A stretch of 64,000 nucleotides of DNA from Escherichia coli (lineage in GTDB: Bacteria; Pseudomonadota; Gammaproteobacteria; Enterobacterales; Enterobacteriaceae), in NCBI RefSeq assembly GCF_001677475.2, contig NZ_CP015229.1; one strand, written 5' to 3'. Positions 1-17,703 of the stretch are shown here, piece after piece. The first letter of the stretch is position 1; the number at the start of each line of letters is the position of its first letter. The notes under the pieces were generated by a model. It saw only the letters and a list, made by a program, of their open reading frames with translations, did no database searches and was not told where the DNA came from. A program made the translations under genes and the position numbers.

Positions 1-138
1 CCGTCATTTACTGCCATGCTAATGCAGAATTTCTCCGATAATTTATTGTTTATCATGATCGCCAGCGTATCGTTTATCTATTTGCTGATGCTGCTTCGCA
101 ACGCCGGTCATACGCCGAAACCCGTTGCTCACGTGTAA
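1..138 (+). CDS. ycaD: C-terminal end of an MFS-type transporter, 5' part outside the window
   Basis: Open frame from the window edge to TAA at 136-138; hydrophobic C-terminus; position upstream of ycaM matches K-12 order. Symbol is by synteny only. Confidence 0.45.
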
Positions 139-347
139 ATGAATTAACGCAGAGTGTGAACTTACTGTTTCACACTCTGCTTTTCTGTTTCTTCTCTCTG
201 ACTTGCTTTTTTCAAAATTTTATTCGTTTCAAAATAAAATGTGCAGCAGGTTATAATTTTGCATTTCGCTATTTCCGCACTTCTTATTTGCCGCGCATAA
301 TCCTTCGTTTTACAGATGCCCCTTTAATTTTGGCGAAGGATTTGTCT

Positions 348-1778
348 ATGGCTGGGAATGTTCAGGAAAAACAGCTGCGATGGTACAACATTGCGCTGAT
401 GTCTTTTATCACTGTCTGGGGTTTTGGCAACGTTGTTAATAACTACGCCAACCAGGGGCTGGTGGTTGTTTTTTCATGGGTGTTTATCTTTGCGCTCTAT
501 TTCACACCTTATGCGCTAATTGTTGGCCAGTTAGGCTCGACCTTCAAAGATGGGAAGGGCGGGGTCAGTACCTGGATTAAACACACGATGGGACCCGGAC
601 TGGCTTACCTCGCCGCGTGGACCTACTGGGTAGTGCATATTCCCTATCTGGCACAAAAACCCCAGGCAATACTGATTGCGCTCGGTTGGGCGATGAAAGG
701 CGACGGTTCGCTAATCAAAGAATATTCAGTCGTAGCGTTACAGGGGTTAACGCTGGTGCTGTTTATCTTCTTTATGTGGGTTGCTTCACGCGGTATGAAA
801 TCGCTGAAAATCGTCGGTTCTGTGGCAGGGATTGCGATGTTTGTTATGTCGCTCCTGTATGTGGCGATGGCGGTAACCGCGCCTGCGATTACTGAAGTGC
901 ATATTGCGACCACAAACATTACCTGGGAAACGTTCATTCCTCATATCGACTTTACCTACATTACCACTATTTCAATGCTGGTTTTCGCGGTTGGCGGAGC
1001 AGAGAAGATTTCTCCTTACGTTAATCAAACGCGCAACCCAGGAAAAGAATTTCCAAAAGGGATGTTATGCCTGGCGGTGATGGTTGCGGTTTGTGCCATT
1101 CTGGGCTCACTGGCGATGGGGATGATGTTTGACTCGCGTAATATCCCGGATGACTTAATGACTAACGGTCAGTATTACGCCTTTCAGAAGCTGGGCGAGT
1201 ATTACAACATGGGTAATACTTTAATGGTGATTTATGCCATTGCGAATACCCTGGGACAAGTAGCTGCGCTGGTATTCTCGATTGATGCACCGCTTAAAGT
1301 GTTATTAGGCGATGCCGACAGCAAATATATTCCAGCAAGTTTATGTCGTACCAACGCTTCTGGTACGCCCGTTAATGGCTATTTTCTGACCCTGGTGCTG
1401 GTGGCGATCCTGATAATGCTACCGACTCTCGGCATTGGTGATATGAACAATCTCTATAAATGGCTGTTGAATCTTAACTCGGTAGTGATGCCGCTGCGTT
1501 ATTTGTGGGTATTTGTTGCGTTTATTGCTGTCGTTCGCCTGGCGCAGAAATATAAACCAGAGTATGTCTTTATTCGTAATAAGCCGATGGCAATGACCGT
1601 CGGGATATGGTGTTTTGCCTTTACCGCTTTTGCATGCCTGACAGGAATTTTCCCTAAAATGGAAGCCTTCATTGCAGAGTGGACATTCCAATTGGCACTG
1701 AACATTACTACGCCATTTGTCCTCGTTGGACTGGGGCTGATATTCCCGCTGCTTGCACGTAAAACGAATACAAAATAG
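348..1778 (+). CDS. ycaM: APC-family amino acid transporter YcaM (476 aa)
   Basis: ORF-track 156..1778; ATG at 348 preceded by AAGGA (336-340); multi-pass membrane protein starting MAGNVQEKQLRWYN. Confidence 0.9.
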   Translation: MAGNVQEKQLRWYNIALMSFITVWGFGNVVNNYANQGLVVVFSWVFIFALYFTPYALIVGQLGSTFKDGKGGVSTWIKHTMGPGLAYLAAWTYWVVHIPYLAQKPQAILIALGWAMKGDGSLIKEYSVVALQGLTLVLFIFFMWVASRGMKSLKIVGSVAGIAMFVMSLLYVAMAVTAPAITEVHIATTNITWETFIPHIDFTYITTISMLVFAVGGAEKISPYVNQTRNPGKEFPKGMLCLAVMVAVCAILGSLAMGMMFDSRNIPDDLMTNGQYYAFQKLGEYYNMGNTLMVIYAIANTLGQVAALVFSIDAPLKVLLGDADSKYIPASLCRTNASGTPVNGYFLTLVLVAILIMLPTLGIGDMNNLYKWLLNLNSVVMPLRYLWVFVAFIAVVRLAQKYKPEYVFIRNKPMAMTVGIWCFAFTAFACLTGIFPKMEAFIAEWTFQLALNITTPFVLVGLGLIFPLLARKTNTK

Positions 1779-1786
1779 TCATCATG

Positions 1787-1802
1787 CCCCGGTTCGCCGG
1801 GG
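1787..1802 (+). terminator. GC hairpin just after the ycaM stop (CCCCGG-TTCG-CCGGGG)
   Basis: Perfect 6-bp inverted repeat with a 4-nt loop read directly from the sequence; no strong T-run follows, so it may be only a stabilising hairpin. Confidence 0.35.
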
Positions 1803-2875
1803 CTGTGATATCAAATAGACTAAAATTAGATCAGGCCTGATAAGGCAAAAGTTAAGTTTTTCTTAAGAGATGAAAGAAAATCAACGCTACCGTGATAATA
1901 CGAATTTTAGTTATCGGAGACCATTATTTTTAGATATGGTGATAGTTTTAATTATTGGTTATTTTGCAAGTTATTATTTTGGGCTCTGGAGTAAACTCTT
2001 GCGCATAGTAATAACATGATTTTTACGGCTAAATTTTCAACAAAGATTGGTAATGTAAACTCGTATTTTTTGATTTGCATCAATGAATTCGCACGTTGCT
2101 AATTATGGTTAAATTTGCTGAGAATGATTGCGGTTATTGTTTGGATATGCAGATGGTATATTGATTCACTGGCGTAATATTCTGTAAAAATTATATTTTA
2201 TAGTGTTTTAATCTGGCAAAAATCATCTCCCGACAGAATCTTCTCATGCCTGGTGTAGTTCACAGTCTTTTGTTTTAAAAATAAAATAGTGCTCTAATGT
2301 TGCATCTATTGTTTTATCGAGCGTGTGTTCCTGAAAATATTTATCTGTTAGGTTGATGGACAAATTACAGCCTGGGCAGTGAAATTTTCACGATCACTTT
2401 CTGACTAAATCTTACTTTAAGGTTACTGATTAATATATTTGGGCTAAGAGAGTCGTATTACACATGTCTCAAAAAAGATAAATAAACAGAAAGGATTACT
2501 CACAATAGATACTAATAACACTTTTGGATAGTTATAGAGTAGAAGCCACGACTCAGCAGGATGTAGTAGCTGTGTTGTTATAAGTTAATTTTTTCATGGC
2601 TAAATTATTTCGTTGAAAAATTAACGAAAGGCGGTAGCGTGGGTGAAAGATACAAAATGAGTGTTACATATAACAATATTACCTTGGTTAAAATAGAATG
2701 AATGATAATCACCTGTGGAAATTAAGAAAAAAGTAATCTTCTCATCATGATATATTTTTTATATGGAATAGTGAAATTAATAAAATCATAAAGAGGAGAG
2801 CAACATCGTCTAATATACAGAACGTTATACGATATGATATGAAGCTATTAATAACATTTTAGTCAGAATACCAGT
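1803..2875 (+). promoter_or_regulatory. About 1.1 kb AT-rich ORF-free leader upstream of the five-gene module; presumed promoter and silencing region
   Basis: No ORF of 60 aa or more on either strand; very AT-rich with A/T tracts; directly upstream of a co-directional gene array. Promoter positions not resolved. Confidence 0.3.
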
Positions 2876-5224
2876 ATGTATAGCATTACCGAAAAATTAA
2901 ACTCAAGATTTAACACTGCGGTTATATTAGCTGTTACTGTCTATATTGTCTTGTCATTTATTACCGCAATTGATTTCCATAAAAAAATAGCAGAAAACTC
3001 TGCACAGATTAACCTTATACTCATCAATAACAATTTGAATAATTTTTTTTCTAAAGTTGAAAAAGAGGCTGATGCATTAAAAGATGCAATCTATCTGTTA
3101 CATGATGAAGATGAAATAAAGCGAGCAGTCCTTCATCGCATGAAAAAAATAGACGCGGTTAATTTAGTAGGGATAATGCTCAATAATGGAAAATATCTTA
3201 GCTTTATTCGAACTGAGAATGGGGAGGTAAAATTTCTGGGGCAATCAGAACCCGGTAAACCTTTTATTGGTGACGATGGTGATATCAGCGATAACTACTT
3301 TAATCCGGAATCACGCCCATGGAATAAATTACCGAGGGGGACTTATTCAAAATGGTCACCATGGTATAATTGTTATGGTATTGCCGGAAAAAAATGTTTT
3401 TCGTTTTCACTACGACCATCCGAAGAAGAAAAAAATTCATTTGCTTTGAAGTTAATACATCTGGATGTTGATGAAAAATATTTCAGTAATTTTTTAAATA
3501 AACTGGGTGGTGATTCTGATATTTTATTCATGGAACAAAACAAAAGGATTATGGTGGGTAATGAAAAATCAATGTTACATCTTATTGTCCGTGATTTATC
3601 GGGAAGTTATAACATAAGCAATAATAGTGGCAACTATACAGACAATGTTATCTCACTCCCCTGGCTTCCTGATGTCAGATTCCATTATTTCCACTATCAA
3701 AAATCAGAAGATACAAACATCAATAAATATTTTACACTGATGTTTTTATGTGGCTTGGTTTGTTTCTGTTTATTATGGTATATCGTTGAAAAAATAACAA
3801 GAAAAATCAAAGGTGAATCCAGCAAACTGATAGAACATCTGAAAAAATTAGCTAATTCAGTATATCGCAACGACACAATTGATATTGTGCAAAATGACAG
3901 TGGTGAGATTGTTGAACTCAAAAAGATCATTAATAATATCAGCGATAAATACAAGGAGCGTATGGACCGATTACTTAATCTTGTGTCCTATGAACAAGGA
4001 AGTTGCTTTTATATTAATAAGGCTATTATTGAAACTAATAATAAAACCTATTTGGCAATTGGTATGCTTTGCATCTATGGATTAGAGTTTGTTGAAGCGG
4101 TATATGGAAATCAGAAATTTCATGAGATTTTTAATGATATAAAATCTAAGATATCACAAAAATATTCAAAATATTGTGATATCGTAAAAATCTCAACTGA
4201 AACATACTTGTTGCTATGTCACACTGATTGCGAAGAGTTCATCGAAAAATTATCGGTTTTAAACTTTCCTGAACATATATTTTGCATAAGAAATATATAT
4301 ATCCACAAGATTGCCATTTGCGAAAATTTTTCAGGGGAAAATGTATCGATTTATGAAAGGAAACTGAAACTGGCATTAACAGCTATGCGGGAAAATAAAG
4401 AATCTGAATTTATTTTTTATGATGACATCAAAGTCCATGAACTTGATCAAAAGGTCTGGGTGGCAGGAAATATAAAAAAAGCGATTGCGAGTAATGAGCT
4501 TTATTTAGTATATCAACCGATTGTTGATATGGATAATAATAGGGTTGTAGGCGCAGAGGCGTTATGTCGCTGGTTGTCCTGCGAAAATGGGGTAATACCG
4601 CCATCAATTTTTGTACCTGTTGCTGAAGAAATAGGATTAATTAAAGAACTGGGTGATTTTGTTCTCGAAACAGCTATTAGCGAATTTGGGGTGTTTAGTT
4701 GTGAATATGAGGTTGCTAACGATTTTCTCCTGCATATCAATGTTTCTCCCTGGCAATTAAATGAATTTGACTTCCACACTCGTGTTCTTACTTTAATTAA
4801 TGCATTTGGTGTAAATGTTGAACAAATCTGCCTGGAGATCACCGAATCAGCAGTAAAAGATATAAATGATAGCTTTTACAATAATATAAATATTTTAAAA
4901 GAAAATGGTATCAAGATTTCCCTTGATGATTTCGGAAGTGGATTAGCTGACCTGAAAAAACTTTATAAAGTAAGACCTGATAGCATTAAAATTGATTCAG
5001 AGTTTACCTCTGGTATTTTCGATGAAACTAACAAGGTTGTATATTTTATATCCAATCTTGCTCGTGAAGAAAATATGCCGGTAATAGCTGAAGGTGTTGA
5101 AACTGAAAGTCAGGCTAGAGAGTTGCAAAAATTAGGATTTTCTCATGTTCAGGGATACTTATACCAGAAACCGTTACCGTTTTCAGAATGGCATATAGAC
5201 AACAAACCGAAAAAAAGAAAATAA
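2876..5224 (+). CDS. Membrane-anchored c-di-GMP phosphodiesterase: TM, periplasmic domain, TM, degenerate GGDEF-like linker, EAL domain (782 aa)
   Basis: EAL-domain signatures present: GAEALCRW, LEITES, DDFGSG, IKIDSEF, EGVETESQ, QGY. Two hydrophobic segments flank a ~250 aa region. No GGDEF/GGEEF motif in the linker. Confidence 0.8.
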   Translation: MYSITEKLNSRFNTAVILAVTVYIVLSFITAIDFHKKIAENSAQINLILINNNLNNFFSKVEKEADALKDAIYLLHDEDEIKRAVLHRMKKIDAVNLVGIMLNNGKYLSFIRTENGEVKFLGQSEPGKPFIGDDGDISDNYFNPESRPWNKLPRGTYSKWSPWYNCYGIAGKKCFSFSLRPSEEEKNSFALKLIHLDVDEKYFSNFLNKLGGDSDILFMEQNKRIMVGNEKSMLHLIVRDLSGSYNISNNSGNYTDNVISLPWLPDVRFHYFHYQKSEDTNINKYFTLMFLCGLVCFCLLWYIVEKITRKIKGESSKLIEHLKKLANSVYRNDTIDIVQNDSGEIVELKKIINNISDKYKERMDRLLNLVSYEQGSCFYINKAIIETNNKTYLAIGMLCIYGLEFVEAVYGNQKFHEIFNDIKSKISQKYSKYCDIVKISTETYLLLCHTDCEEFIEKLSVLNFPEHIFCIRNIYIHKIAICENFSGENVSIYERKLKLALTAMRENKESEFIFYDDIKVHELDQKVWVAGNIKKAIASNELYLVYQPIVDMDNNRVVGAEALCRWLSCENGVIPPSIFVPVAEEIGLIKELGDFVLETAISEFGVFSCEYEVANDFLLHINVSPWQLNEFDFHTRVLTLINAFGVNVEQICLEITESAVKDINDSFYNNINILKENGIKISLDDFGSGLADLKKLYKVRPDSIKIDSEFTSGIFDETNKVVYFISNLAREENMPVIAEGVETESQARELQKLGFSHVQGYLYQKPLPFSEWHIDNKPKKRK

Positions 5225-5228
5225 AGCA

Positions 5229-6569
5229 ATGTTCAAATATAAAAAAAAGGCGGCAGTGATCTGTTTTTTGTATTTTTTGTGCGTCGCTGTAGTAACTTGT
5301 TATTTGTACACCATTCATGTTAAAGGCCGTATAAATTCGGTGAAGGTATCTATTGTAGATAGTGGGCTTGCAATAGCTAATGTTTCTGAGTATCGCCGCT
5401 CAGTATCTAATAATATATTTTATGAACTTGAGGTTTCGCCAGAAGAGTTGTTAAAAAAAATACGCAATAGCTTTGCTGGCTATGAAAACCCTGGATATTT
5501 GTATGATCTCGGTCCTTATATGATTAGCGATGGTAAATGTATCAAAGTCACAACGAAAGGAGATAATTTTTGTGACGACATAGTTTCCTCTATTAGGGTA
5601 ATTAATGAATTTGAAAGAGGCATTATTAGCTTAAAAAATAAGTGCTATGTTTATTATGCTCATCCCATTGCAAAACGTACAAGTTTGATATCAGTGGTAG
5701 ATCCTGAACGTTATTTATCTTTGATAAGAAATCAATCAGGGGAACGAGAAGATATCTATGTATCATTTTATGATATTAATGATAATGAAAAGAAAATCGC
5801 AGGTGATGATTTTTTGATAAATGATGCAGTATTTGAGATGTCAGCTATCACTCTGTCGTATTCTTATCTTCCAGAAATGATGTTTATTGTTGCCTATAAA
5901 AAAAGTAAATATCTATATATATGTGCGTTTTTCGTTTTTGCATCGGCAATATCTGCAGTCATAATGTATGTTTATTATGTTAAATTATTGCGTGATATTA
6001 TAAATAAGGGTAGATTGGAAAAAGAATCTATATTGTCGAATCATCAATATGATTTACGTGGAGAAAATCTATTCTTTAATACGGAAGAGATTAATGCAAT
6101 TCGAGAGATATATGACTTTGGCACTTGTGATGCATTAACCAGGGCTTCTGGTCGCCGGAGTTTTGATAAAGAAATCAAGATACTGAGAAAAAATTTTGGC
6201 TACCTGTGTCTATTTGATGTGGATAAATTTAAAACCATTAATGATAAGTTTGGTCATTTATTTGGTGATGAAGTACTCATCAAACTTGTTAATATCATTA
6301 AAGAAGAGTTACCCCGTCGTGAAGGGGAAATATACCGGTTTGGCGGTGATGAGTTTGCTATTATTTATTATGAGAAAGATAAAAATAAGCTATCAAGAAT
6401 TTTGCACAGAGTTGTTCATTTCGCCATTGGTGGGTTAAATTGTAGTTGCAGTATAGGTGTTGCCAGCACAGATGAGTGCATGAATAACATTGAACGGTTG
6501 AAATTGCTGGCAGATGAACGGTTATATAAAAGTAAGCAAAATGGCCGAGCACAGATAACGTGGTGTTGA
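5229..6569 (+). CDS. Membrane diguanylate cyclase: TM, periplasmic domain, TM, GGDEF domain (446 aa)
   Basis: Intact GGDEF motifs: DALT, FDVDKFKTINDKFGH, GDEVL, RFGGDEF. Position -9 to -6 before GGDEF reads RREG rather than RxxD, so the inhibitory I-site looks degenerate. Four bp after the preceding gene. Confidence 0.85.
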   Translation: MFKYKKKAAVICFLYFLCVAVVTCYLYTIHVKGRINSVKVSIVDSGLAIANVSEYRRSVSNNIFYELEVSPEELLKKIRNSFAGYENPGYLYDLGPYMISDGKCIKVTTKGDNFCDDIVSSIRVINEFERGIISLKNKCYVYYAHPIAKRTSLISVVDPERYLSLIRNQSGEREDIYVSFYDINDNEKKIAGDDFLINDAVFEMSAITLSYSYLPEMMFIVAYKKSKYLYICAFFVFASAISAVIMYVYYVKLLRDIINKGRLEKESILSNHQYDLRGENLFFNTEEINAIREIYDFGTCDALTRASGRRSFDKEIKILRKNFGYLCLFDVDKFKTINDKFGHLFGDEVLIKLVNIIKEELPRREGEIYRFGGDEFAIIYYEKDKNKLSRILHRVVHFAIGGLNCSCSIGVASTDECMNNIERLKLLADERLYKSKQNGRAQITWC

Positions 6570-6653
6570 TATTTTAATTTGCATGGCATTGGTCATCGAT
6601 GTTTACAAAAATCACACAGTTCAAGTTATATTATTAATGAATCGTTAAGTGCA

Positions 6654-8768
6654 ATGCTCATAAAAAATAAAGTAATATTAAACAAAATCCTTTTGGTTGT
6701 TGCTATACTGCTATGTTTTGTTTTTTTATCAATTGTTGAACAGCCCCTTGGATTTTATCAACAAACATTATTTTCAATTATTATTTGTATCGCTGCTATC
6801 TTCCTTAATTTTCTCAAAGGAAGGATAATTACTCTGATTCTAATGGGTGTTGGAATACTCATATCATCCCGATATCTATGGTGGCGTTACTCTTCTTCAG
6901 TAATCCTGGATGAATTTCCAGACTGTTTATTTTCAGTCACGCTATTAGTTGCTGAGACGTATGCATGGTTTGTTTTATTACTTGGTTACTTTCAGGTTTG
7001 CTTCCCGCTGAACCGAGAAAGTATACCCTTACCAGAGAATAAAGAAGAATGGCCCGTTGTTGATATATTAATCCCCACATATAACGAACCCTTTACAGTC
7101 GTTAAGAATACAGTTTATGGTGCGTTGGCCTTAGACTGGCCAACGGATAAATTAAATATCTGGCTCCTTGATGATGGCGCCAGGGACGAGTTCAGGAAAT
7201 TCGCGAACGAGTTAGGTATTTACTATGTCGCAAGAGAAACACATGAACATGCTAAGGCCGGAAATATAAATAATGCGCTTAAAATAGCTAATGGCGAATT
7301 TGTTGCTATTTTCGATTGCGATCATATACCCTCGGTTTCTTTTTTAAAGAAAACGATGGGCTGGTTTATCGCCGATAAAAAATTATCGATGTTGCAAACA
7401 CCACATCATTTTTTTTCCCCCGACCCTTTTGAGCGAAATTTGGGGCAGTTTCGGCAAAAGCCAAATGAAGGACACCTTTTTTATGGGTTAATCCAGAATG
7501 GTACGGATACATGGAATGCTTCATTTTTTTGTGGTTCATGTGCAATCATCCGTAGATCTGCTCTGGATGAGGTTGGAGGCATTGCAGTCGAAACAGTAAC
7601 AGAAGATGCGCATACGTCGTTACGCTTGCATCGTGCAGGTTATAGCTCTGCGTATCTTCGCTATCCTCTGGCTGCCGGGCTAGCCACCGAAACATTGTCT
7701 GCTCATATTGGACAACGGATTCGGTGGGCTCGAGGCATGATTCAAATCTTGCGTATTGACAATCCATTATTGGGCAAGGGGCTGACATTATCACAGCGCC
7801 TTTGCTATCTCAGCAGCATGATGCATTTTTTATCAGGTGTGCCACGCCTGATTTTCTTGTTCGCACCGTTATGTCCTATTTTCTTTTCGGTCAATCTGAT
7901 CGATGCATCAGTTGCAGATATTATGTCTTATGTTTTACCTTATCTATTTGTTATTATTTTAACTAATTCAAGAGTACAAGGTAAATACAGACATTCATTC
8001 TGGAATGAGATTTATGAAATGGTTCTGGCCTGGTATATTACGCTACCAACGCTTGTAGCTTTACTTGCGCCAGCAAAAGGTCGTTTTAACGTTACGGCCA
8101 AAGGGGGACTGATAAAAAATAAGTTTGTTGACTGGCGAATTTCCTATCCCTATCTTATTTTTGCTATTTTAAATGTAATCGGGCTGATAATAGGTGTTAT
8201 TAATGTTTATAGTTTGCAAGGGCATATTGCCATCTTGAATTTGTTTTGTTTAATCTGGTTGTTTTATAACGCAATTATTATTGGCGCAACTTTGGCTGTT
8301 TCTATTGAACAAAAGCAGGTGCGTTTTTCTCCCCGTATTGATGTTTCTTTCAAGGGCGTTATACAACTGGATGATGGACGGCGCTATCCTTGTTCTGTTC
8401 TTGATTTTTCCGAAGGAGGATTAGGTGTAATCCTTGATAATATCTCCGACGTAAAAGATATGCTTAAAGCACAGCAATTGTCTCTTTATCTGGATGATAG
8501 CAACGGGAAATGTGATATTCCGGTAGAAATAGTTCATGCTTACAATAATAAAATTGGTCTGAAGATTATGCCAATGAGTTATGAACAAAGTGTTAATTAT
8601 GTAAGAGCAACGTTTTCTCGTGATTCATTATGGCAAGAGTGGAATAATAAAATTAGACGGGACAATATTCTAAAGAGTTTTTTTGAAATATGTTTCATCT
8701 CTCTGAAAGGTTATTGCAATATGGTTTTTTATATTCTGCGGACACTGAAAAGCAGTTCCAAAAGTTAG
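6654..8768 (+). CDS. BcsA-family processive beta-glycosyltransferase with C-terminal PilZ domain (cellulose-synthase-like catalytic subunit)
   Basis: N-terminal TM helices; GT2 motifs DILIPTYNEP, LLDDGARDEF, FDCDH, TEDAHTS, FFCGSCAIIRR, QRIRWARG; PilZ motifs RFSPR and DFSEGGLG. ORF-track frame opens at a TTG at 6579; ATG at 6654 chosen as start, uncertain. Confidence 0.82.
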   Translation: MLIKNKVILNKILLVVAILLCFVFLSIVEQPLGFYQQTLFSIIICIAAIFLNFLKGRIITLILMGVGILISSRYLWWRYSSSVILDEFPDCLFSVTLLVAETYAWFVLLLGYFQVCFPLNRESIPLPENKEEWPVVDILIPTYNEPFTVVKNTVYGALALDWPTDKLNIWLLDDGARDEFRKFANELGIYYVARETHEHAKAGNINNALKIANGEFVAIFDCDHIPSVSFLKKTMGWFIADKKLSMLQTPHHFFSPDPFERNLGQFRQKPNEGHLFYGLIQNGTDTWNASFFCGSCAIIRRSALDEVGGIAVETVTEDAHTSLRLHRAGYSSAYLRYPLAAGLATETLSAHIGQRIRWARGMIQILRIDNPLLGKGLTLSQRLCYLSSMMHFLSGVPRLIFLFAPLCPIFFSVNLIDASVADIMSYVLPYLFVIILTNSRVQGKYRHSFWNEIYEMVLAWYITLPTLVALLAPAKGRFNVTAKGGLIKNKFVDWRISYPYLIFAILNVIGLIIGVINVYSLQGHIAILNLFCLIWLFYNAIIIGATLAVSIEQKQVRFSPRIDVSFKGVIQLDDGRRYPCSVLDFSEGGLGVILDNISDVKDMLKAQQLSLYLDDSNGKCDIPVEIVHAYNNKIGLKIMPMSYEQSVNYVRATFSRDSLWQEWNNKIRRDNILKSFFEICFISLKGYCNMVFYILRTLKSSSKS

Positions 8769-8833
8769 TTCTAATTTCTGACTGCTAATTAAATATATTG
8801 TTTGTGTTTATTATGGTTGTTGAATTTTTTAAA

Positions 8834-11134
8834 ATGGAAAGAAAATTTTTGAGATTAAGTGCTGCGATAATTGGCTTGGGGTTATTATGTTTTTACCAGG
8901 CAAATACAGCATCGGCTACAGATACAGTAACCAGTAAGTCTTCCTCTGGAGAAGTATTACCATCTATCCAGAAGACAAATATCTCTGCTTATGAGAAAGA
9001 GTCGTCTCGCCATTTTAAACTCCCATTTACACAAATCGCACCAGCTCCAGGAAACATAGTCCTGAATGGCGTTAACCCACAGGGGCAAATTGAGTTTGGT
9101 ATGCGTAGCGATGAAATAGTATCAGAAGCAAAACTAAAACTTGAATACACTACATCACCGTCGCTGATCCCTGTCCAGTCACAGCTTAAGGTCTATCTTA
9201 ATGACGAGTTGATGGGGGTATTGCCGATTACCAAAGAACAACTGGGGAAGAAAACGCTGGCGGAAATAACTCTTAACCCATTGTATTTTTCTGATTTTAA
9301 TCGCTTGCGCCTCGAATTAATTAGTCACTACCAGAGCGCCTGTGAAAACCCGACCAGCAGCAATTTGTGGCTTGATATTGGACGTACCAGTGAACTTGAA
9401 CTGGTATTTCAGAGACTTAATCTGAAAAATGATCTTTCATATTTTCCTGTACCGTTTTTTGACCCGCGAGATAACCGCACTAATACATTGCCGATGGTTT
9501 TTGCAGGTACTCCTGAGACTGGTTTGCAGCAGGCATCAGCTATTGTCGCTTCGTGGTTTGGTGCGCAATCTGGCTGGCGTGGTCACCGATTTCCGGTTTT
9601 CTATAACCAGTTACCGGAAAGTAATGCAGTGGTCTTTGCCACTAACAATAGACGCCCGGACTTTCTGCGCGAGCATCCGTTGGTGAATGCGCCTGTTATT
9701 AAAATGATCAGTCATCCACAAAATCCTTTTATCAAATTGCTGGTACTTTTGGGCCGCGATGACAAAGATTTATTACAGGCGGCAAAAGGCCTTGCACAGG
9801 GAAATATACTTTTTCGCGGCGATAGTGTGATCGTAAATGAAGTGACGCCGTTACTGCCGCGTAAACCTTATGATGCGCCAAACTGGGTACGCACTGACCG
9901 TCCTGTAACTTTCGCAGAGCTTAAAAATTATGAAGGGCAGTTACAGGCAAGTGGCCTGGAGTCTGCGGCAATTAATGTTTCATTTAATTTGCCACCTGAT
10001 CTTTTTCTATTGCGTAATCGTGGGGTTGATATGAAGATTAACTATCGCTATACCACGCCAACGATAGGTGGTTCACGCATGGATGTCAGCCTTAATAACC
10101 AGTACCTTGAATCTTTCCGGCTAAGTCCGCAATCTGCTACCGATAGATTGTTGTTACGTTTACCGTTATTGCAAGAATTGTTGGATGGTAATAATGGAAT
10201 TACCATTCCTGCGCTGACGTTGGGGGCGCTTAATCAATTGCGATTTAATTTTGAGTACATTAATACAATGCCGCGTTCTGATGCTGATAGCTGTATTATT
10301 TCCAGGCCTCTAAAAAATCATGCGGTTATTGCAGATGATTCCACTATCGATTTTTCAAAGTACCATCACTTTATCGCAATGCCAGATTTACGCGCTTTTG
10401 CCAGCTCAGGCTTTCCATTTAGCCGCATGGCCGATCTATCAGAAACGGTTGTGGTTATGCCTGAAAATCCTGGTACAACGCAAGTTGAAACATTATTAAA
10501 TACCCTTGGACTGATTGGTGCTCAAACTGGATTTCCGGCAATTAATCTGACAATTACTGATGATATAGGTTCTGTCCAGGGTAAGGATTCAGATATTCTG
10601 CTTATAGGAACACTTCCGCAAGAATTTGCAGATAAACAGCAAATTAATCTGCTCATTGAGGCAACAACGAGTTGGGTAAAAAGCCCAATGCGGAACACTG
10701 ATTACGCAAAAATTATGGCAGATAAAAACGATCAAAAACCTGAAATACAAACAACTATAAATTCCCCATTGCCAATGGCGGCGATAGTTGGTTTTCAGTC
10801 CCCATATCATGCCCAACGTAGCGTAATTGCTTTAATGTCCGAGGGATCACGCGGCGATACGCTACTCAACAATGCGTTAATTAATAGTACAAAACGCGGC
10901 AATATTTTTGGTTCAGTCGCGGTTATTCGCGAATCTGGCGTCAATAGTTTACAGGTTGGAGATACTTATTACGTTGGGCATCTCCCCTGGATTGAACGAG
11001 TGCAATATGTGTTAGCCAGACACCCCATTCTACTGGCAGTCCTGGCAACTCTCAGTGTGGTGCTATTGGCGTGGGTAGTATGGCGTCTGTTACGTAACAT
11101 TAGTCGCCGTCGTCTGAACCCTCATCAACAGTAA
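8834..11134 (+). CDS. BcsB-like periplasmic subunit with signal peptide and C-terminal membrane anchor
   Basis: ORF-track 8798..11134 opens at a TTG; ATG at 8834 gives a classical signal peptide (MERKFLRLSAAIIGLGLLCFYQANTASA). About 770 aa with a C-terminal hydrophobic helix followed by RRRLNP, the typical BcsB size and topology. Confidence 0.8.
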   Translation: MERKFLRLSAAIIGLGLLCFYQANTASATDTVTSKSSSGEVLPSIQKTNISAYEKESSRHFKLPFTQIAPAPGNIVLNGVNPQGQIEFGMRSDEIVSEAKLKLEYTTSPSLIPVQSQLKVYLNDELMGVLPITKEQLGKKTLAEITLNPLYFSDFNRLRLELISHYQSACENPTSSNLWLDIGRTSELELVFQRLNLKNDLSYFPVPFFDPRDNRTNTLPMVFAGTPETGLQQASAIVASWFGAQSGWRGHRFPVFYNQLPESNAVVFATNNRRPDFLREHPLVNAPVIKMISHPQNPFIKLLVLLGRDDKDLLQAAKGLAQGNILFRGDSVIVNEVTPLLPRKPYDAPNWVRTDRPVTFAELKNYEGQLQASGLESAAINVSFNLPPDLFLLRNRGVDMKINYRYTTPTIGGSRMDVSLNNQYLESFRLSPQSATDRLLLRLPLLQELLDGNNGITIPALTLGALNQLRFNFEYINTMPRSDADSCIISRPLKNHAVIADDSTIDFSKYHHFIAMPDLRAFASSGFPFSRMADLSETVVVMPENPGTTQVETLLNTLGLIGAQTGFPAINLTITDDIGSVQGKDSDILLIGTLPQEFADKQQINLLIEATTSWVKSPMRNTDYAKIMADKNDQKPEIQTTINSPLPMAAIVGFQSPYHAQRSVIALMSEGSRGDTLLNNALINSTKRGNIFGSVAVIRESGVNSLQVGDTYYVGHLPWIERVQYVLARHPILLAVLATLSVVLLAWVVWRLLRNISRRRLNPHQQ

Positions 11135-11246
11135 TTCATCATCATTTCTATTTTGCGGCTCCATTCTGTCCTGACTTTATACAGGCAGGGAGCTGCGCCC
11201 GTTCTGTTTTTAATAAAAAGTGAGTTAACACCTGATTGAGGCAGGC

Positions 11247-14200
11247 ATGTACAAATTCACCCTAAATTTACTCACAATATCCCTTGGTTTGGCGGTAATG
11301 TCGATGGCGAAAGCCACACCAACTGTACACAAGCTGTTAATGGCGCAGATTCGGTTAGGCGAAGACATTCATCGTGAAGATCTGGTCGAACAGTCGCTTT
11401 ATCGTCTTGAATTGGCGGAACCTGATAATCCAGATGTCGTTGCGGCGCGTTTTCGCTATCTGCTGCGTAAGGGGGATATTGAAGGTGCGCAAAAACAACT
11501 TGCCAGACTTTCCCTGTTCGCTCCTGATTCAAAAATATATAAAGCATCGCGCACGGCCATGCGACTTTCTTCGCCTGAGGGGCGTCAGGCACTGCAAATG
11601 GCACGCTTACAAGCTATCTCCGGGCGACATAAAGAGGCTATCGACAGTTACGACAAGCTATTTAACGGGGCACCGCCAGATATCGAAATGGCGCTGGAAT
11701 ACTGGGGGGCAATGACGCAAATTTCCTCCCGTCGCAACGAAGCGATTCGTCAGTTGAAAATACTTAATATTGATAATCCTGACTCTGGTGCCATATTTGG
11801 GGCGCTGGGGCAGGCGTATTCCCAGAATGGCGATCGCGCTAATGCGGTGGCGAATCTGGAAAAAGCCCTCGCACTGGATCCGCACAGCAGCAACAACGAC
11901 AAATGGAACAGTCTGCTGAAGGTGAATCGCTACTGGCTGGCGATCCAGCAGGGCGATGCTGCGCTGAAAGCCAATAATCCTGACCGCGCAGAGCGTCTGT
12001 TCCAGCAGGCGCGCAATGTCGATAACGCCGACAGCTATGCGGTGCTGGGGCTGGGCGATGTGGCGATGGCGCGCAAAGATTACCCCGCCGCCGAACGTTA
12101 TTATCAGCAGACGCTGCGTATGGACAGCGGCAACACCAACGCCGTGCGCGGGCTGGCGAATCTTTATCGCCAGCAGTCGCCGGAAAAAGCCGAAGCGTTT
12201 ATTGCCTCGCTCTCTGCCAGCCAGCGGCGCAGCGTTGATGACATCGAACGCAGCCTGCAAAACACGCGTTTATCACAGCAGGCAGAGGCACTGGAAAATC
12301 AGGGTAAATGGGCGCAGGCGGCAGCACTTCAGCGCCAGCGACTGGCGCTCGATCCCGGCAGTGTGTGGATTACTTACCGGCTTTCGCAGGATCTCTGGCA
12401 GGCCGGACAACGCAGCCAGGCCGATACGTTAATGCGCCATCTGGCGCAGCAGAAGCCGAACGACCCGGAGCAGGTTTACGCTTACGGGCTGTATCTCTCT
12501 GGTCATGACCAGGACAGAGCGGCGCTGGCGCATATCAACAGCCTGCCGCGCGCGCAATGGAACAGCAATATTCAGGAGCTGGTTAATCGACTGCAAAGCG
12601 ATCAGGTGCTGGAAACCGCTAATCGCCTGCGAGAAAGCGGCAAAGAAGCTGAAGCGGAAGCGATGCTGCGCCAACAACCACCTTCCACGCGTATTGATCT
12701 CACGCTGGCTGACTGGGCGCAACAACGACGTGATTATACCGCCGCCCGCGCTGCATATCAGAATGTCCTGATGCGGGAGCCAACTAACGCCGATGCCATT
12801 CTTGGTCTGACGGAAGTGGATATTGCTGCCGGTGACAAAGCGGCAGCACGTAGCCAGCTGGCGAAACTGCCTGCCACCGATAACGCGTCGCTGAACACTC
12901 AGCGGCGCGTGGCGCTGGCACAGGCGCAGCTTGGCGATACCGCAGCGGCGCAGCAGACGTTTAATAAGTTGATCCCGCAGGCAAAATCTCAGCCGCCGTC
13001 GATGGAAAGCGCGATGGTGCTGCGCGACGGTGCGAAGTTTGAAGCGCAGGCGGGCGATCCAAAGCAGGCGCTGGAAACCTACAAAGACGCCATGGTCGCA
13101 TCCGGTGTGACTACGACGCGTCCGCAGGATAACGACACCTTTACCCGACTGACCCGTAACGATGAGAAAGATGACTGGCTGAAGCGCGGTGTGCGCAGCG
13201 ACGCGGCAGATCTCTATCGTCAGCAGGATCTTAACGTCACCCTTGAGCACGACTACTGGGGATCGAGTGGCACCGGTGGTTACTCCGACCTGAAAGCGCA
13301 CACTACCATGTTGCAGGTGGATGCTCCGTATTCTGACGGGAGGATGTTCTTTCGCAGTGATTTCGTCAATATGAACGTCGGCAGTTTCTCCACTAATGCC
13401 GATGGCAAATGGGATGACAACTGGGGCACCTGTACATTACAGGACTGTAGTGGCAACCGCAGCCAGTCGGACTCCGGTGCCAGCGTGGCGGTCGGCTGGC
13501 GAAATGACGTCTGGAGCTGGGATATCGGTACCACGCCGATGGGCTTCAACGTGGTGGATGTGGTCGGCGGCATCAGTTACAGCGATGATATCGGGCCGCT
13601 GGGTTACACCGTTAACGCCCACCGTCGGCCCATCTCCAGTTCTTTGCTGGCCTTTGGTGGGCAAAAAGACTCTCCGGGCAATACCGGGAAAAAATGGGGT
13701 GGCGTGCGTGCCGACGGCGTGGGGCTAAGCCTGAGCTACGATAAAGGTGAAGCAAACGGCGTCTGGGCATCGCTTAGCGGTGACCAGTTAACCGGTAAAA
13801 ATGTCGAAGATAACTGGCGCGTGCGCTGGATGACGGGCTATTACTATAAGGTCATTAACCAGAACAATCGCCGCGTCACAATCGGCCTGAACAACATGAT
13901 CTGGCATTACGACAAAGATCTGAGTGGCTACTCACTCGGTCAGGGCGGTTACTACAGTCCGCAGGAATACCTGTCGTTTGCCATACCGGTGATGTGGCGG
14001 GAGCGCACGGAAAACTGGTCGTGGGAGCTGGGTGCATCTGGCTCGTGGTCGCATTCGCGCACCAAAACCATGCCGCGTTATCCGCTGATGAACCTGATCC
14101 CGACGGACTGGAAAGAGGATGCCGCCAGCCAGACCAACGACGGCGGCAGCAGTCAGGGCTTTGGCTACACGGCGCGGGCGTTACTTGAGCGTCGCGTCAC

Positions 14201-14354
14201 GTCCAACTGGTTTGTCGGCACGGCGATTGATATCCAGCAGGCGAAAGATTATGCGCCAAGCCATTTCCTGCTCTACGTGCGGTATTCCGCCGCCGGATGG
14301 CAGGGCGACATGGATTTACCGCCGCAGCCGCTGATACCTTACGCCGACTGGTAA
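11247..14354 (+). CDS. BcsC-like export component: signal peptide, TPR repeats, C-terminal outer-membrane beta-barrel (1035 aa)
   Basis: Signal peptide MYKFTLNLLTISLGLAVMSMAKA; TPR-like repeats; Gly/Tyr/Trp-rich C-terminal region ending in aromatic residues; GAGG before the ATG. GC and codon usage change abruptly near 11.8 kb. Confidence 0.8.
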   Translation: MYKFTLNLLTISLGLAVMSMAKATPTVHKLLMAQIRLGEDIHREDLVEQSLYRLELAEPDNPDVVAARFRYLLRKGDIEGAQKQLARLSLFAPDSKIYKASRTAMRLSSPEGRQALQMARLQAISGRHKEAIDSYDKLFNGAPPDIEMALEYWGAMTQISSRRNEAIRQLKILNIDNPDSGAIFGALGQAYSQNGDRANAVANLEKALALDPHSSNNDKWNSLLKVNRYWLAIQQGDAALKANNPDRAERLFQQARNVDNADSYAVLGLGDVAMARKDYPAAERYYQQTLRMDSGNTNAVRGLANLYRQQSPEKAEAFIASLSASQRRSVDDIERSLQNTRLSQQAEALENQGKWAQAAALQRQRLALDPGSVWITYRLSQDLWQAGQRSQADTLMRHLAQQKPNDPEQVYAYGLYLSGHDQDRAALAHINSLPRAQWNSNIQELVNRLQSDQVLETANRLRESGKEAEAEAMLRQQPPSTRIDLTLADWAQQRRDYTAARAAYQNVLMREPTNADAILGLTEVDIAAGDKAAARSQLAKLPATDNASLNTQRRVALAQAQLGDTAAAQQTFNKLIPQAKSQPPSMESAMVLRDGAKFEAQAGDPKQALETYKDAMVASGVTTTRPQDNDTFTRLTRNDEKDDWLKRGVRSDAADLYRQQDLNVTLEHDYWGSSGTGGYSDLKAHTTMLQVDAPYSDGRMFFRSDFVNMNVGSFSTNADGKWDDNWGTCTLQDCSGNRSQSDSGASVAVGWRNDVWSWDIGTTPMGFNVVDVVGGISYSDDIGPLGYTVNAHRRPISSSLLAFGGQKDSPGNTGKKWGGVRADGVGLSLSYDKGEANGVWASLSGDQLTGKNVEDNWRVRWMTGYYYKVINQNNRRVTIGLNNMIWHYDKDLSGYSLGQGGYYSPQEYLSFAIPVMWRERTENWSWELGASGSWSHSRTKTMPRYPLMNLIPTDWKEDAASQTNDGGSSQGFGYTARALLERRVTSNWFVGTAIDIQQAKDYAPSHFLLYVRYSAAGWQGDMDLPPQPLIPYADW

Positions 14355-14395
14355 TGAGGTAGAATCAGAAGGTTAAAACTCGGAAATTAAATCCA

Positions 14396-14438
14396 GTAAA
14401 TCAGCGTCGAGCATGTTCTTAACGCTGATTTACTTTTT
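14396..14438. terminator. Hairpin plus T-run between the convergent BcsC-like gene and pflA
   Basis: GTAAATCAGCGT … ACGCTGATTTAC inverted repeat followed by TTTTT, read directly. Confidence 0.5.
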
Positions 14439-14488
14439 ACTACTAAAGGAAGGGGTGGCAGGTCGGAATTCAGCCTGCACATGATGTT

Positions 14489-15229
14489 TTAGAACATCAC
14501 TTTATGACCATATTGCTCAAGAATCCCTTTCACTCGCTCCATGGTTTCTTTTTTCGGTGGTTTCACACCGTCGAGTTTGTACTCTTCGCCCATCGCCACC
14601 CACTTATGTTTGCCTAACTCATGGTAGGGGAGGAGCTCGATTTTTTCGACGTTACCCATATCGCGAGTAAATTCACCGAGGCGATGAGCTGAATCGTCAT
14701 CGTCAGACCAGCCAGGTACTACGACATAACGTATCCAGACTTTCACATTTTTGTTCGCCAGATATTTAGCAAACTCGAGTGTACGATGGTTGGAAACGCC
14801 TACCAGATTCTGGTGGATTTCGTCGTTCATCTGTTTGAGATCGAGCATTACCAGGTCGGTCACTTCCAGAAGTTCATCAATTACTGGATCGTAACGACGA
14901 ACAAAACCGTTAGTGTCCAGACAGGTATGAATGCCTTCTTTTTTGCAGGCGCGGAACCAGTCGCGAACGAACTCGGCTTGCAGGATTGCTTCACCACCGG
15001 ATGCGGTAACGCCGCCGCCGGAAGCGTTCATAAAGTGGCGATAGGTCACCACTTCCTTCATTAAATCTTCAACGGTAACTTCTTTACCGCCATGCGTATC
15101 CCAGGTGTCGCGGTTATGACAATACAGGCAGCGCATCAGGCAGCCCTGGAAAAAGGTGATAAAGCGAATACCCGGGCCGTCTACGGTTCCACAGGATTCA
15201 AAGGAGTGAATGCGACCAATAACTGACAT
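14489..15229 (-). CDS. pflA: Pyruvate formate-lyase activating enzyme (radical SAM)
   Basis: Protein [20 protein letters not shown] … [10 protein letters not shown] … YGHKVMF; ORF-track frame extends 9 codons upstream, start set at the conserved Met. Confidence 0.95.
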
Positions 15230-15420
15230 TGCGGTGTTTCTCCAGATGTGGCCCATCTGAGGCCGTGTTGGTGCGCAGCTCGAAGGCTACGTCGAGTCTG
15301 TTTTGGCAGTCACCTTAAAGTATAGATAGCTGACAAAAAAGGCTCTCGTGCTAAAAAAGGCCCCACTTTCGTGGAGCCTTTATTGTACGCTTTTTACTGT
15401 ACGATTTCAGTCAAATCTAA

Positions 15421-17703
<2,283 letters not shown>

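Follow-up and report, generated by a model that had tools for sequence, protein, structure and literature searches.

A second bcsC gene on an Escherichia cellulose-synthase island joins an island-type 5' part to a repeatedly replaced 3' part of core type

How can a single intact reading frame in a cellulose-synthase operon carry two base compositions? The question is raised by a 64,000-nt stretch of Escherichia coli DNA (contig NZ_CP015229.1; hereafter the window), in which a second copy of the cellulose-synthase gene bcsC, here called bcsC2, forms an open reading frame (ORF) of 1035 amino acids (aa) at positions 11247–14354. It lies directly downstream of an accessory bcsA (6654–8768) and bcsB (8834–11134) and on the same strand; features are given on the plus strand unless stated otherwise. 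A first-pass annotation made from the sequence letters had read the gene as a recombinant of a foreign 5' end and a bcsC 3' part of enterobacterial type, or else as an assembly chimera. We found that the gene is a hybrid whose codons 1–184 share the deep divergent history of the bcsA and bcsB genes of the accessory island and whose codons 185–1035 are of core type. The junction is old and shared with other carriers, not peculiar to the window genome, and the 3' part is no frozen relic: it has been replaced repeatedly and independently, and resembles either the core bcsC of its own background (E. marmotae, E. coli E69 and N3) or that of an earlier host (E. albertii-like, in the E7 group).

The change in composition is abrupt. 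Segment 1, the island-type 5' part (11247–11798; codons 1–184, comprising the signal peptide and the first tetratricopeptide repeats, TPRs), was delimited by GC content, identity and synonymous divergence (dS). Its GC content is 47.8% and its GC at third codon positions (GC3) 0.451 (gene nt 1–552), and 9.8% of its codons belong to the rare set CTA/TTA/ATA/AGA/AGG/CGA/GGA/GGG. Segment 2, the core-derived 3' part (11799–14354; the remaining TPRs and the BCSC_C β-barrel), is 93–97% identical to E. coli core bcsC, with 58.6% GC, GC3 of 0.675 and 3.5% rare-set codons (gene nt 553–3105). A maximum chi-square test placed the change point at codon 184 (window position 11798) both for GC3 and for total GC, and none of 1000 permutations reached the observed value. 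The rare-codon start and the sharp switch near 11.8 kb seen in the first reading are thus borne out, as is its 55–64% GC for the 3' part, its figure of about 44% for the 5' part being slightly low. Core bcsC shows only a mild gradient over the same span, from 54% to 58% GC. The genes upstream of bcsC2 have 28–49% GC, and the gradient along the operon, breaking inside one ORF as had been described, is real. We looked for core-like conversion patches in the island bcsA and bcsB and found none, their identity to the core genes being 35–76% per 40-codon window and without a megablast core match; the gradient upstream of bcsC2 is therefore not explained by core-derived patches.

The protein is shortened at the same place. 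BcsC2 has 122 aa fewer than the 1157-aa core protein: core residues 177–298 are absent, the gap following codon 176, and the corresponding 366-nt gap relative to core bcsC adjoins position 11775. The missing residues amount to about 3.5 TPRs, and the protein falls short of the full complement of 19 TPRs and 1157 aa of the E. coli type. The in-frame fusion removing TPRs and some 100 aa, proposed from the sequence alone, was therefore of the right kind, the gap adjoining the switch. The switches in composition and identity and the 122-aa gap all fall within 24 nt of one another; together with incongruent phylogenies of the two parts (below), this upholds the reading of a recombinant gene. The hybrid still matches the BcsC equivalog NF008520 at 1892 bits (cut-off 858), in two stretches with profile positions ~177–299 missing, and its residues 178–1035 align to profile positions 300–1157. 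BCSC_C (PF05420) was found on residues 680–1014 (E = 1.4e-119, model positions 1–334 of 336), PDB 6TZK aligns to residues 587–1035, and multiple TPR Pfam matches lie between residues 57 and 616. An AlphaFold2 model predicted 35 helices between residues 27 and 660 with a predicted local confidence score (pLDDT) mostly of 78–92; in the barrel, pLDDT was below 50 with the 22-sequence alignment used, and the TPR part of the model is the usable one.

Codon and six-allele alignments confined the junction to a zone at 11775–11809. The last island-type codons, NPDSGAIF (11775–11798), are followed by a common motif, GGGGCGCTGGG, and the codon alignment switches between NPDSGAIF and the core-type GALGQAYSQ.... 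This places the junction at a TPR boundary, where the NP motif is followed by helix A, with Pfam TPR_1/2/8 matches at residues 185–213. In the AlphaFold2 model, the predicted helices 160–176, 181–194 and 197–210 run continuously over the junction with pLDDT of 80–91.

The two parts have different relatives. In megablast searches of a panel of 5,426 complete E. coli genomes, gene nt 553–3108 matched core bcsC at ~95% identity in 5,422 genomes, and gene nt 1–552 matched only in the 9 that carry the same island; searching the parts separately, the check suggested earlier, thus pulled them cleanly apart. The 5' part is ~70% identical in nucleotides to any core bcsC, with 64–67% amino acid identity to core over the first 176 residues, and dS against core bcsC is 1.38–1.84 in the 5' part and 0.07–0.28 in the 3' part. 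In a neighbor-joining tree of the 5' part, a single long branch holding the window, E7 and E. marmotae-type alleles falls outside the Escherichia–Citrobacter–Salmonella clade; in the tree of the 3' part, the window allele groups with the core gene of E. coli CT29 and the E7 allele with the E. albertii core, and the two trees are incongruent. As the distance of the 5' part to core (65% aa identity) equals that of the island BcsB (65.8%), which itself branches outside all sampled Enterobacteriaceae core BcsB, the 5' part belongs with the island, and it is "alien" only as a member of this divergent accessory cluster. A candidate placement of the 5' part within Escherichia bcsC, as an older layer of conversion, was rejected on the same two grounds, the long branch outside Escherichia–Citrobacter–Salmonella and the 65% aa identity equal to that of the island BcsB.

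The same numbers bear on an explanation without any recombination, in which bcsC2 is a diverged duplicate of core bcsC whose 5' part, with constraint relaxed and drift biased toward AT, changed quickly and whose 3' part was conserved. The N-terminal TPR region is indeed the least conserved part of core BcsC across genera, and the core gene has its own mild GC gradient. However, dS differs 8- to 27-fold between the two parts, beyond what protein constraint can produce; the 3' part branches at the tips of the species-level tree, the 5' part deep in that of the family; and dN/dS (the ratio of nonsynonymous to synonymous divergence) of the 5' part is 0.15, the signal of purifying selection. We give such divergence in place practically no credence.

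The other possibility named at the outset, that an assembler joined a divergent bcsC 5' end to the 3' part of the core gene, has some initial appeal, as the 3' part is a ~95% identical repeat of the core gene and short-read assemblies do break at the junction. Several short-read contigs of island-bearing strains (L087–L090 and L084) end exactly at gene nt 553–554 or 31 nt beyond, as is to be expected at a place where unique sequence meets a repeat of the core gene. Against an artefact, 9 complete E. coli chromosomes, E69 and read-through contigs of E. marmotae share the junction and the gap and keep the 1035-aa frame intact, and in all those genomes the gene runs on into the pflA flank. For the junction, the assembly chimera is thereby refuted, and its probability is negligible. 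Among the allele classes of the island (those of the window, E69 and N3, of the E7 group, and of the E. marmotae type), all four carry the identical junction and 122-codon gap, and these classes are 83–99% identical to the window sequence. The shared junction and gap therefore date from one ancestral event, older than the 14–17% divergence of the alleles. Among 100,044 species-representative genomes scanned, E. coli E69 alone had the hybrid.

One contig departs from this picture in its own way. Logan contig L005 (10330–10805; run SRR29904084), with an island of the E. marmotae type, has the bcsC 5' part followed by the 3' part of rssA. The bcsC2–rssA join comes directly after the junction motif GGGGCGCTGGGCC, and sister contigs of the same allele run on into bcsC; either the DNA was truly rearranged at this short motif, or the contig was joined wrongly.

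A common junction would also be left by a single ancient fusion with nothing happening since, the differences in the 3' part being ordinary vertical divergence. The comparison of the window with E69 speaks against this. The two islands are ~99% identical over 1800–12550 and 86–95% identical over 12600–14100, and within bcsC2 the identity falls from 99% (dS 0.008) in the 5' part to 95% (dS 0.228) in the 3' part. It had been proposed that a homolog identical uniformly along its whole length and sharing the internal shift would mark the gradient as ancestral. Whole-length homologs with the same shift do exist, but their identity to the window gene is not uniform, and the shift thus still marks a recombination junction.

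The 3' parts, moreover, pair with different core genes, allele by allele. In E69, the bcsC2 3' part shares 98.2% identity with the strain's own core bcsC, against at most 94.8% with any other panel sequence and 93.5–94.8% with the other bcsC2 alleles. In N3, the 3' part and the strain's own core agree at 96.9% of positions; the mismatches come in clusters, and unbroken matches of 338, 321 and 272 nt lie between them. The E. marmotae-type 3' part differs from E. marmotae core bcsC at 7 positions in 2,234 nt (99.7% identity) and is ~91% identical to E. coli cores, its 5' part being 69.9% identical to the same E. marmotae core gene. For the E7 allele, the closest core gene is that of E. albertii, at 93.4% identity over the 3' part as against 88% for E. 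coli cores, and short E. coli-like patches occur in it. With 5' parts that form one clade, 3' parts that follow different cores and, in the window copy, a statistically supported internal breakpoint (below), the history of a lone fusion is very unlikely. Donors are at hand: in E69, N3 and E7-1N7 alike, the genome holds a core bcsC besides the island copy, and so a homologous donor.

The window copy is itself a mosaic. We scored as informative the positions at which E69 bcsC2 and the CT29 core gene differ and analyzed their runs, together with a maximum chi-square test. The window gene is E69-like over gene nt 553–1305, CT29-like over 1332–2787 and E69-like again from 2898 to the end; the strongest breakpoint lies between gene nt 1305 and 1332, and none of 2000 permutations reached its value. 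The first sub-segment (11799–12551), with an allele like the E69 core, is 97.2% identical to the E69 core, 98.3% to E69 bcsC2 and 93.2% to the CT29 core. The second (12578–14033), defined by the informative-site runs, is an internal conversion tract of ~1.5 kb from the typical E. coli core allele class, 96.7–96.8% identical to the CT29, N3 and E7 cores and to the bcsC of plasmid pS56 and 91.9% identical to E69 bcsC2. The third (14144–14354) is the 3' end as found in E69 and N3 bcsC2, 100% identical over gene nt 2898–3105. The window copy thus contains a tract from a different E. coli core allele class, with older sequence on both sides.

Replacement tracts need not come from the resident chromosome, and we considered incoming DNA as their source, namely core bcsC of other strains or species, or the full-length core-type bcsC found on ~130 Escherichia plasmids. 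The E7-group 3' part is E. albertii-like though the E7 core is of E. coli type, several sub-windows of the window gene match the bcsC of plasmid pS56 as well as or better than chromosomal cores, 129 Escherichia plasmids carry a bcsC copy, and the island flanks look imported (88–90% identity at the ycaM and pflA ends). On the other hand, the E69 and E. marmotae-type 3' parts match their own or conspecific core at 98.2–99.7%, most simply by intragenomic exchange, and the two routes are not exclusive and yield the same product. As a replacement for conversion by the resident core gene, we consider this source unlikely. Independently of the island, the 3' part of core bcsC varies by up to 7.6% in nucleotides between E. 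coli strains (E69 and N3 are 92.4% identical, CT29 and SCPM 94.6%), a diversity far above that of typical core genes, which suggests frequent allele import at core bcsC.

The history that we favor, with a probability of roughly 85%, begins with a single ancestral TPR-to-TPR fusion that kept the repeats in register; gene conversion then recurred, reaching no further than homology allows. The founding event would have been an out-of-register recombination between two TPR units with the motif NP..(A/S)..GALG.AY, which would have joined island codon 184 to core codon 307, losing ~3.5 TPRs and keeping the repeat register. Later exchanges would have been RecA-type gene conversions from the resident core copy or possibly from plasmid-borne bcsC copies. 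The 5' limit of conversion would be fixed by the want of usable homology upstream, given the 30% divergence, the 366-nt indel and unrelated neighboring DNA. The homology of bcsC2 to the core locus ends at the stop codon, and this end would set the 3' limit. With exchange restricted to the region 3' of the junction, replacements that arose separately in different species would appear to begin at the same nucleotide.

Several points weigh against this history or blur its details. The founding event is deduced, as no unfused island-type bcsC was found: a search with the N-terminal 184 aa and BcsB against 5.8 billion proteins yielded no donor, and beyond the island alleles (79–98% identity for the N-terminus, 84–98% for BcsB) the next matches were ordinary core proteins at no more than 68%. 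The direction of each single exchange is unproven; we infer transfer from core to island because the core-type sequence is present in over 5,400 genomes that have no island. No exact donor of the tract 12578–14033 can be named, the best full-length match among the 5,426 genomes being 97.5%, because the isolate's own core bcsC lies outside the window. If the window was assembled from short reads, two ~95% identical copies could in principle have been merged into one consensus, which would make the internal mosaic an artefact. N3 bcsC2 is equally near to its own core and to that of CT29 (96.9% for both). Finally, the E7-group 3' part, at 88.6% identity, does not match the resident core; homogenization therefore comes in episodes, and the island itself or incoming DNA may have brought in some of the tracts.

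The position of the junction within the protein invites a functional reading. In E. coli, cryo-electron microscopy showed that BcsC docks on the terminal BcsB subunit through TPR#1 alone, residues Q30, Q34, L37, Q49, R53, L56 and I57 contacting a BcsB groove formed by V108, L162–D166, L207, V209 and K210 (PMC11379886). The island BcsC keeps five of these seven contact residues, differing at Q30L and I57A/V, and the island BcsB differs at the facing positions F163Y, I164F and V209L. Retaining the island TPR#1, the hybrid would, to judge from sequence, couple the island BcsA–BcsB to a pore and distal solenoid of host type, a weaker claim than the history above. Going further, the hybrid boundary might be kept by selection as well as by the homology limit, BcsC2 acting as a natural adaptor with TPR#1–4 matched to the island BcsB, in line with the paired changes at facing contact residues, and with the distal solenoid and barrel kept host-type to fit the host envelope. 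We hold this idea tentatively and consider it rather doubtful. In the plasmid-type cluster, a BcsB just as divergent (contacts A-L-Y-M-K-D-I-L-Q) is paired with a BcsC that is core-type throughout, which weakens the idea of docking specificity. If the adaptor idea is true, a foreign synthase could plug into whichever Escherichia species it entered, and the alleles would form a natural domain-swap series separating partner-specific from generic parts of BcsC, with ~3.5 TPRs dispensable. The cellulose made may also differ. The N-terminal domain of BcsA is described as recruiting the phosphoethanolamine transferase BcsG (PMC11379886). The island BcsA, aligning to positions 149–836 of profile NF008558, is without the ~148-aa N-terminal domain of core BcsA, and the island product is therefore probably unmodified cellulose.

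Compared with known systems, BcsC2 has the same signal peptide, TPR solenoid and C-terminal BCSC_C barrel as core E. coli BcsC (YhjL, 1157 aa; PDB 9B8A, 6TZK and 9B8I), and its residues 185–1035 are ~98% identical in amino acids to core residues 307–1157. Unlike core bcsC, it follows bcsB directly, with no bcsZ, stands at a different locus and encodes 122 residues fewer. Accessory chromosomal bcsABC clusters with YliE- and YliF-like neighbors have been described (Hosseinpourlamardi et al., Römling laboratory, bioRxiv 10.1101/2025.05.09.653004). As here, the clusters of the BcsA2/BcsA3 classes have no bcsZ, a BcsA without the ~150-aa N-terminus, and genes for YliE-like EAL and YliF-like GGDEF proteins, and occur in Escherichia only; this likeness draws on the description of the clusters (BcsA3 reference HDP8224287.1), the sequence comparison having been made with the BcsA2 reference. 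The preprint reports that BcsC clusters concordantly with BcsA, and its text contains neither "chimer" nor "recombin". Unlike in that account, the window bcsC is a hybrid whose 3' part follows the host core gene.

The bcs cluster of E. coli S56 plasmid A and ~130 other plasmids resembles the window island in combining divergent bcsA and bcsB with a bcsC of core origin. On S56 plasmid A (9705–20627), a group II intron and IS200 come after bcsA and bcsB, and beyond them lie 121 nt from the end of bcsZ and then a core-type bcsC of full length. The plasmid gene encodes the whole 1157 aa and its 5' part is 98.9% identical to core; it thus differs from bcsC2 as a separate, non-homologous capture with no intragenic fusion. 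In S56, the homology of the plasmid bcsC to the core gene stops ~10 nt before the stop codon.

Gene conversion is known to drive the concerted evolution of paralogs in bacteria, for example of tufA/tufB in Salmonella and of rRNA operons. As in those cases, dispersed copies are kept alike here by recombination in homology-bounded tracts, giving mosaics. Unlike them, bcsC2 is homogenized in part only, the recipient lies on a mobile island and the donor is a core gene, and the homogenized part changes identity as the island moves between Escherichia species. A similar in-frame loss is seen in a core BcsC variant (P0225; 1027 aa, in more than 1000 contigs), which lacks ~130 residues between the like TPR motifs DRAALA and RRVALA. 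Its deletion, at core residues ~551–680, differs in lying inside the core gene with no change of ancestry across it; the variant shows that repeat-to-repeat deletions arise and persist in bcsC, and it is independent of the bcsC2 event. Full-text literature searches returned no report of a bcsC chimera or of bcsC gene conversion. Accessory bcs clusters and gene conversion between paralogs are already known, and the bcsC chimera with conversion appears to be new.

The partial repeat has practical consequences. As bcsC2 repeats the core gene in part, short-read assemblies break at nt 553, databases gain fragments named "tetratricopeptide repeat protein, partial" (P0001–P0003), and whole-protein BcsC trees will misplace bcsC2 with the core gene or as "concordant" with BcsA. 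The locus also offers a clean natural case in which part of a mobile-island gene is kept in step with a core gene over at least three Escherichia backgrounds and with a fixed boundary, so that conversion tract lengths and homology limits can be read directly from the alleles. As natural chimeras with the BcsB-docking TPR#1 of one system, ~3.5 TPRs fewer and the pore of another, the alleles make partner specificity and minimum solenoid length testable.

The hybrid gene closes an insert of 12.7 kb with five co-oriented genes, located between ycaM (end at 1778) and pflA. The pflA–pflB–focA flank is 99.1–99.4% identical to that of E. coli GF43 and N3, identifying the window as E. coli. The whole insert is present in 9 of the 5,426 genomes, at the ycaM–pflA site every time, and also in strain E69 and in E. 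marmotae; in these rare Escherichia lineages an accessory cellulose-synthase island stands in place of ycaN–ycaK between ycaM and pflA. The left flank, ycaM (348–1778; an APC permease gene), was placed by the annotation of the syntenic N3 locus, whose start corresponds to window position 348; the mechanical ORF begins with GTG at 156, 192 nt further upstream. Typical E. coli genomes are 87.6–88.2% identical to window 1600–1777, the last ~180 nt of ycaM, and have no match past 1777. On the right, they match only from 14489 on, the near edge of pflA (14489–15256, minus strand), and its 3' end (14489–14600, the last ~110 nt) is ~90% identical to theirs. Given these identities of 88% and 90% at the gene ends, the insert and the adjoining ends of ycaM and pflA would form one distinct imported haplotype. 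The pattern suggests that a divergent Escherichia lineage supplied the island and that homologous recombination brought it in, the crossovers lying within ycaM and pflA. In an E. marmotae-type haplotype (L085), ycaM is wholly absent.

The island begins with an AT-rich noncoding leader (1779–2875; 28–33% GC) of 1.1 kb, which holds no ORF of at least 100 aa and precedes the EAL gene. It is conserved at only 68–75% in the E7 and E. marmotae-type alleles and is possibly a long regulatory region; an Rfam scan of window 1–16000, the leader included, matched no family, and in a promoter consensus scan promoter-like sites were not enriched over shuffled sequences. Two cyclic di-GMP genes follow, assigned from Pfam matches on the homologous locus, NCBIfam (EAL-family matches for the first) and the preprint (10.1101/2025.05.09.653004): a YliE/PdeI-like CHASE9–EAL phosphodiesterase gene (2876–5224) and a YliF/DgcI-like GAPES2–GGDEF diguanylate cyclase gene (5229–6569). 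The accessory bcsA, with its ATG at 6654, matched NF008558 at 1012 bits (cut-off 992), and its product is 51.6% identical in amino acids to core BcsA and 71.9% to the plasmid-type BcsA2 (reference of plasmid S56). The accessory bcsB matched NF008325 at 1189 bits (cut-off 922). The island is without bcsG, bcsE, bcsF, bcsQ, bcsR and bcsZ. In the 134-nt spacer before pflA, we read from the sequence a hairpin with a 12-bp stem, GTAAATCAGCGT/ACGCTGATTTAC, followed by TTTTT (14396–14438), which is kept in the N3 and E7 alleles and is likely the operon terminator; its 14-nt loop caused a simple terminator scan to miss it.

In some carriers (GF43 and the SCU-172 group), the island is broken by insertion sequences of the IS3 family or by IS1, and not every copy is therefore likely to be functional. 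Over all island genes, dN/dS is 0.06–0.15, with 0.088 for the YliE-like gene (window versus E7 alleles), 0.131 for the YliF-like gene and the value already given for the bcsC 5' part, and the operon is thus maintained under purifying selection and not decaying.

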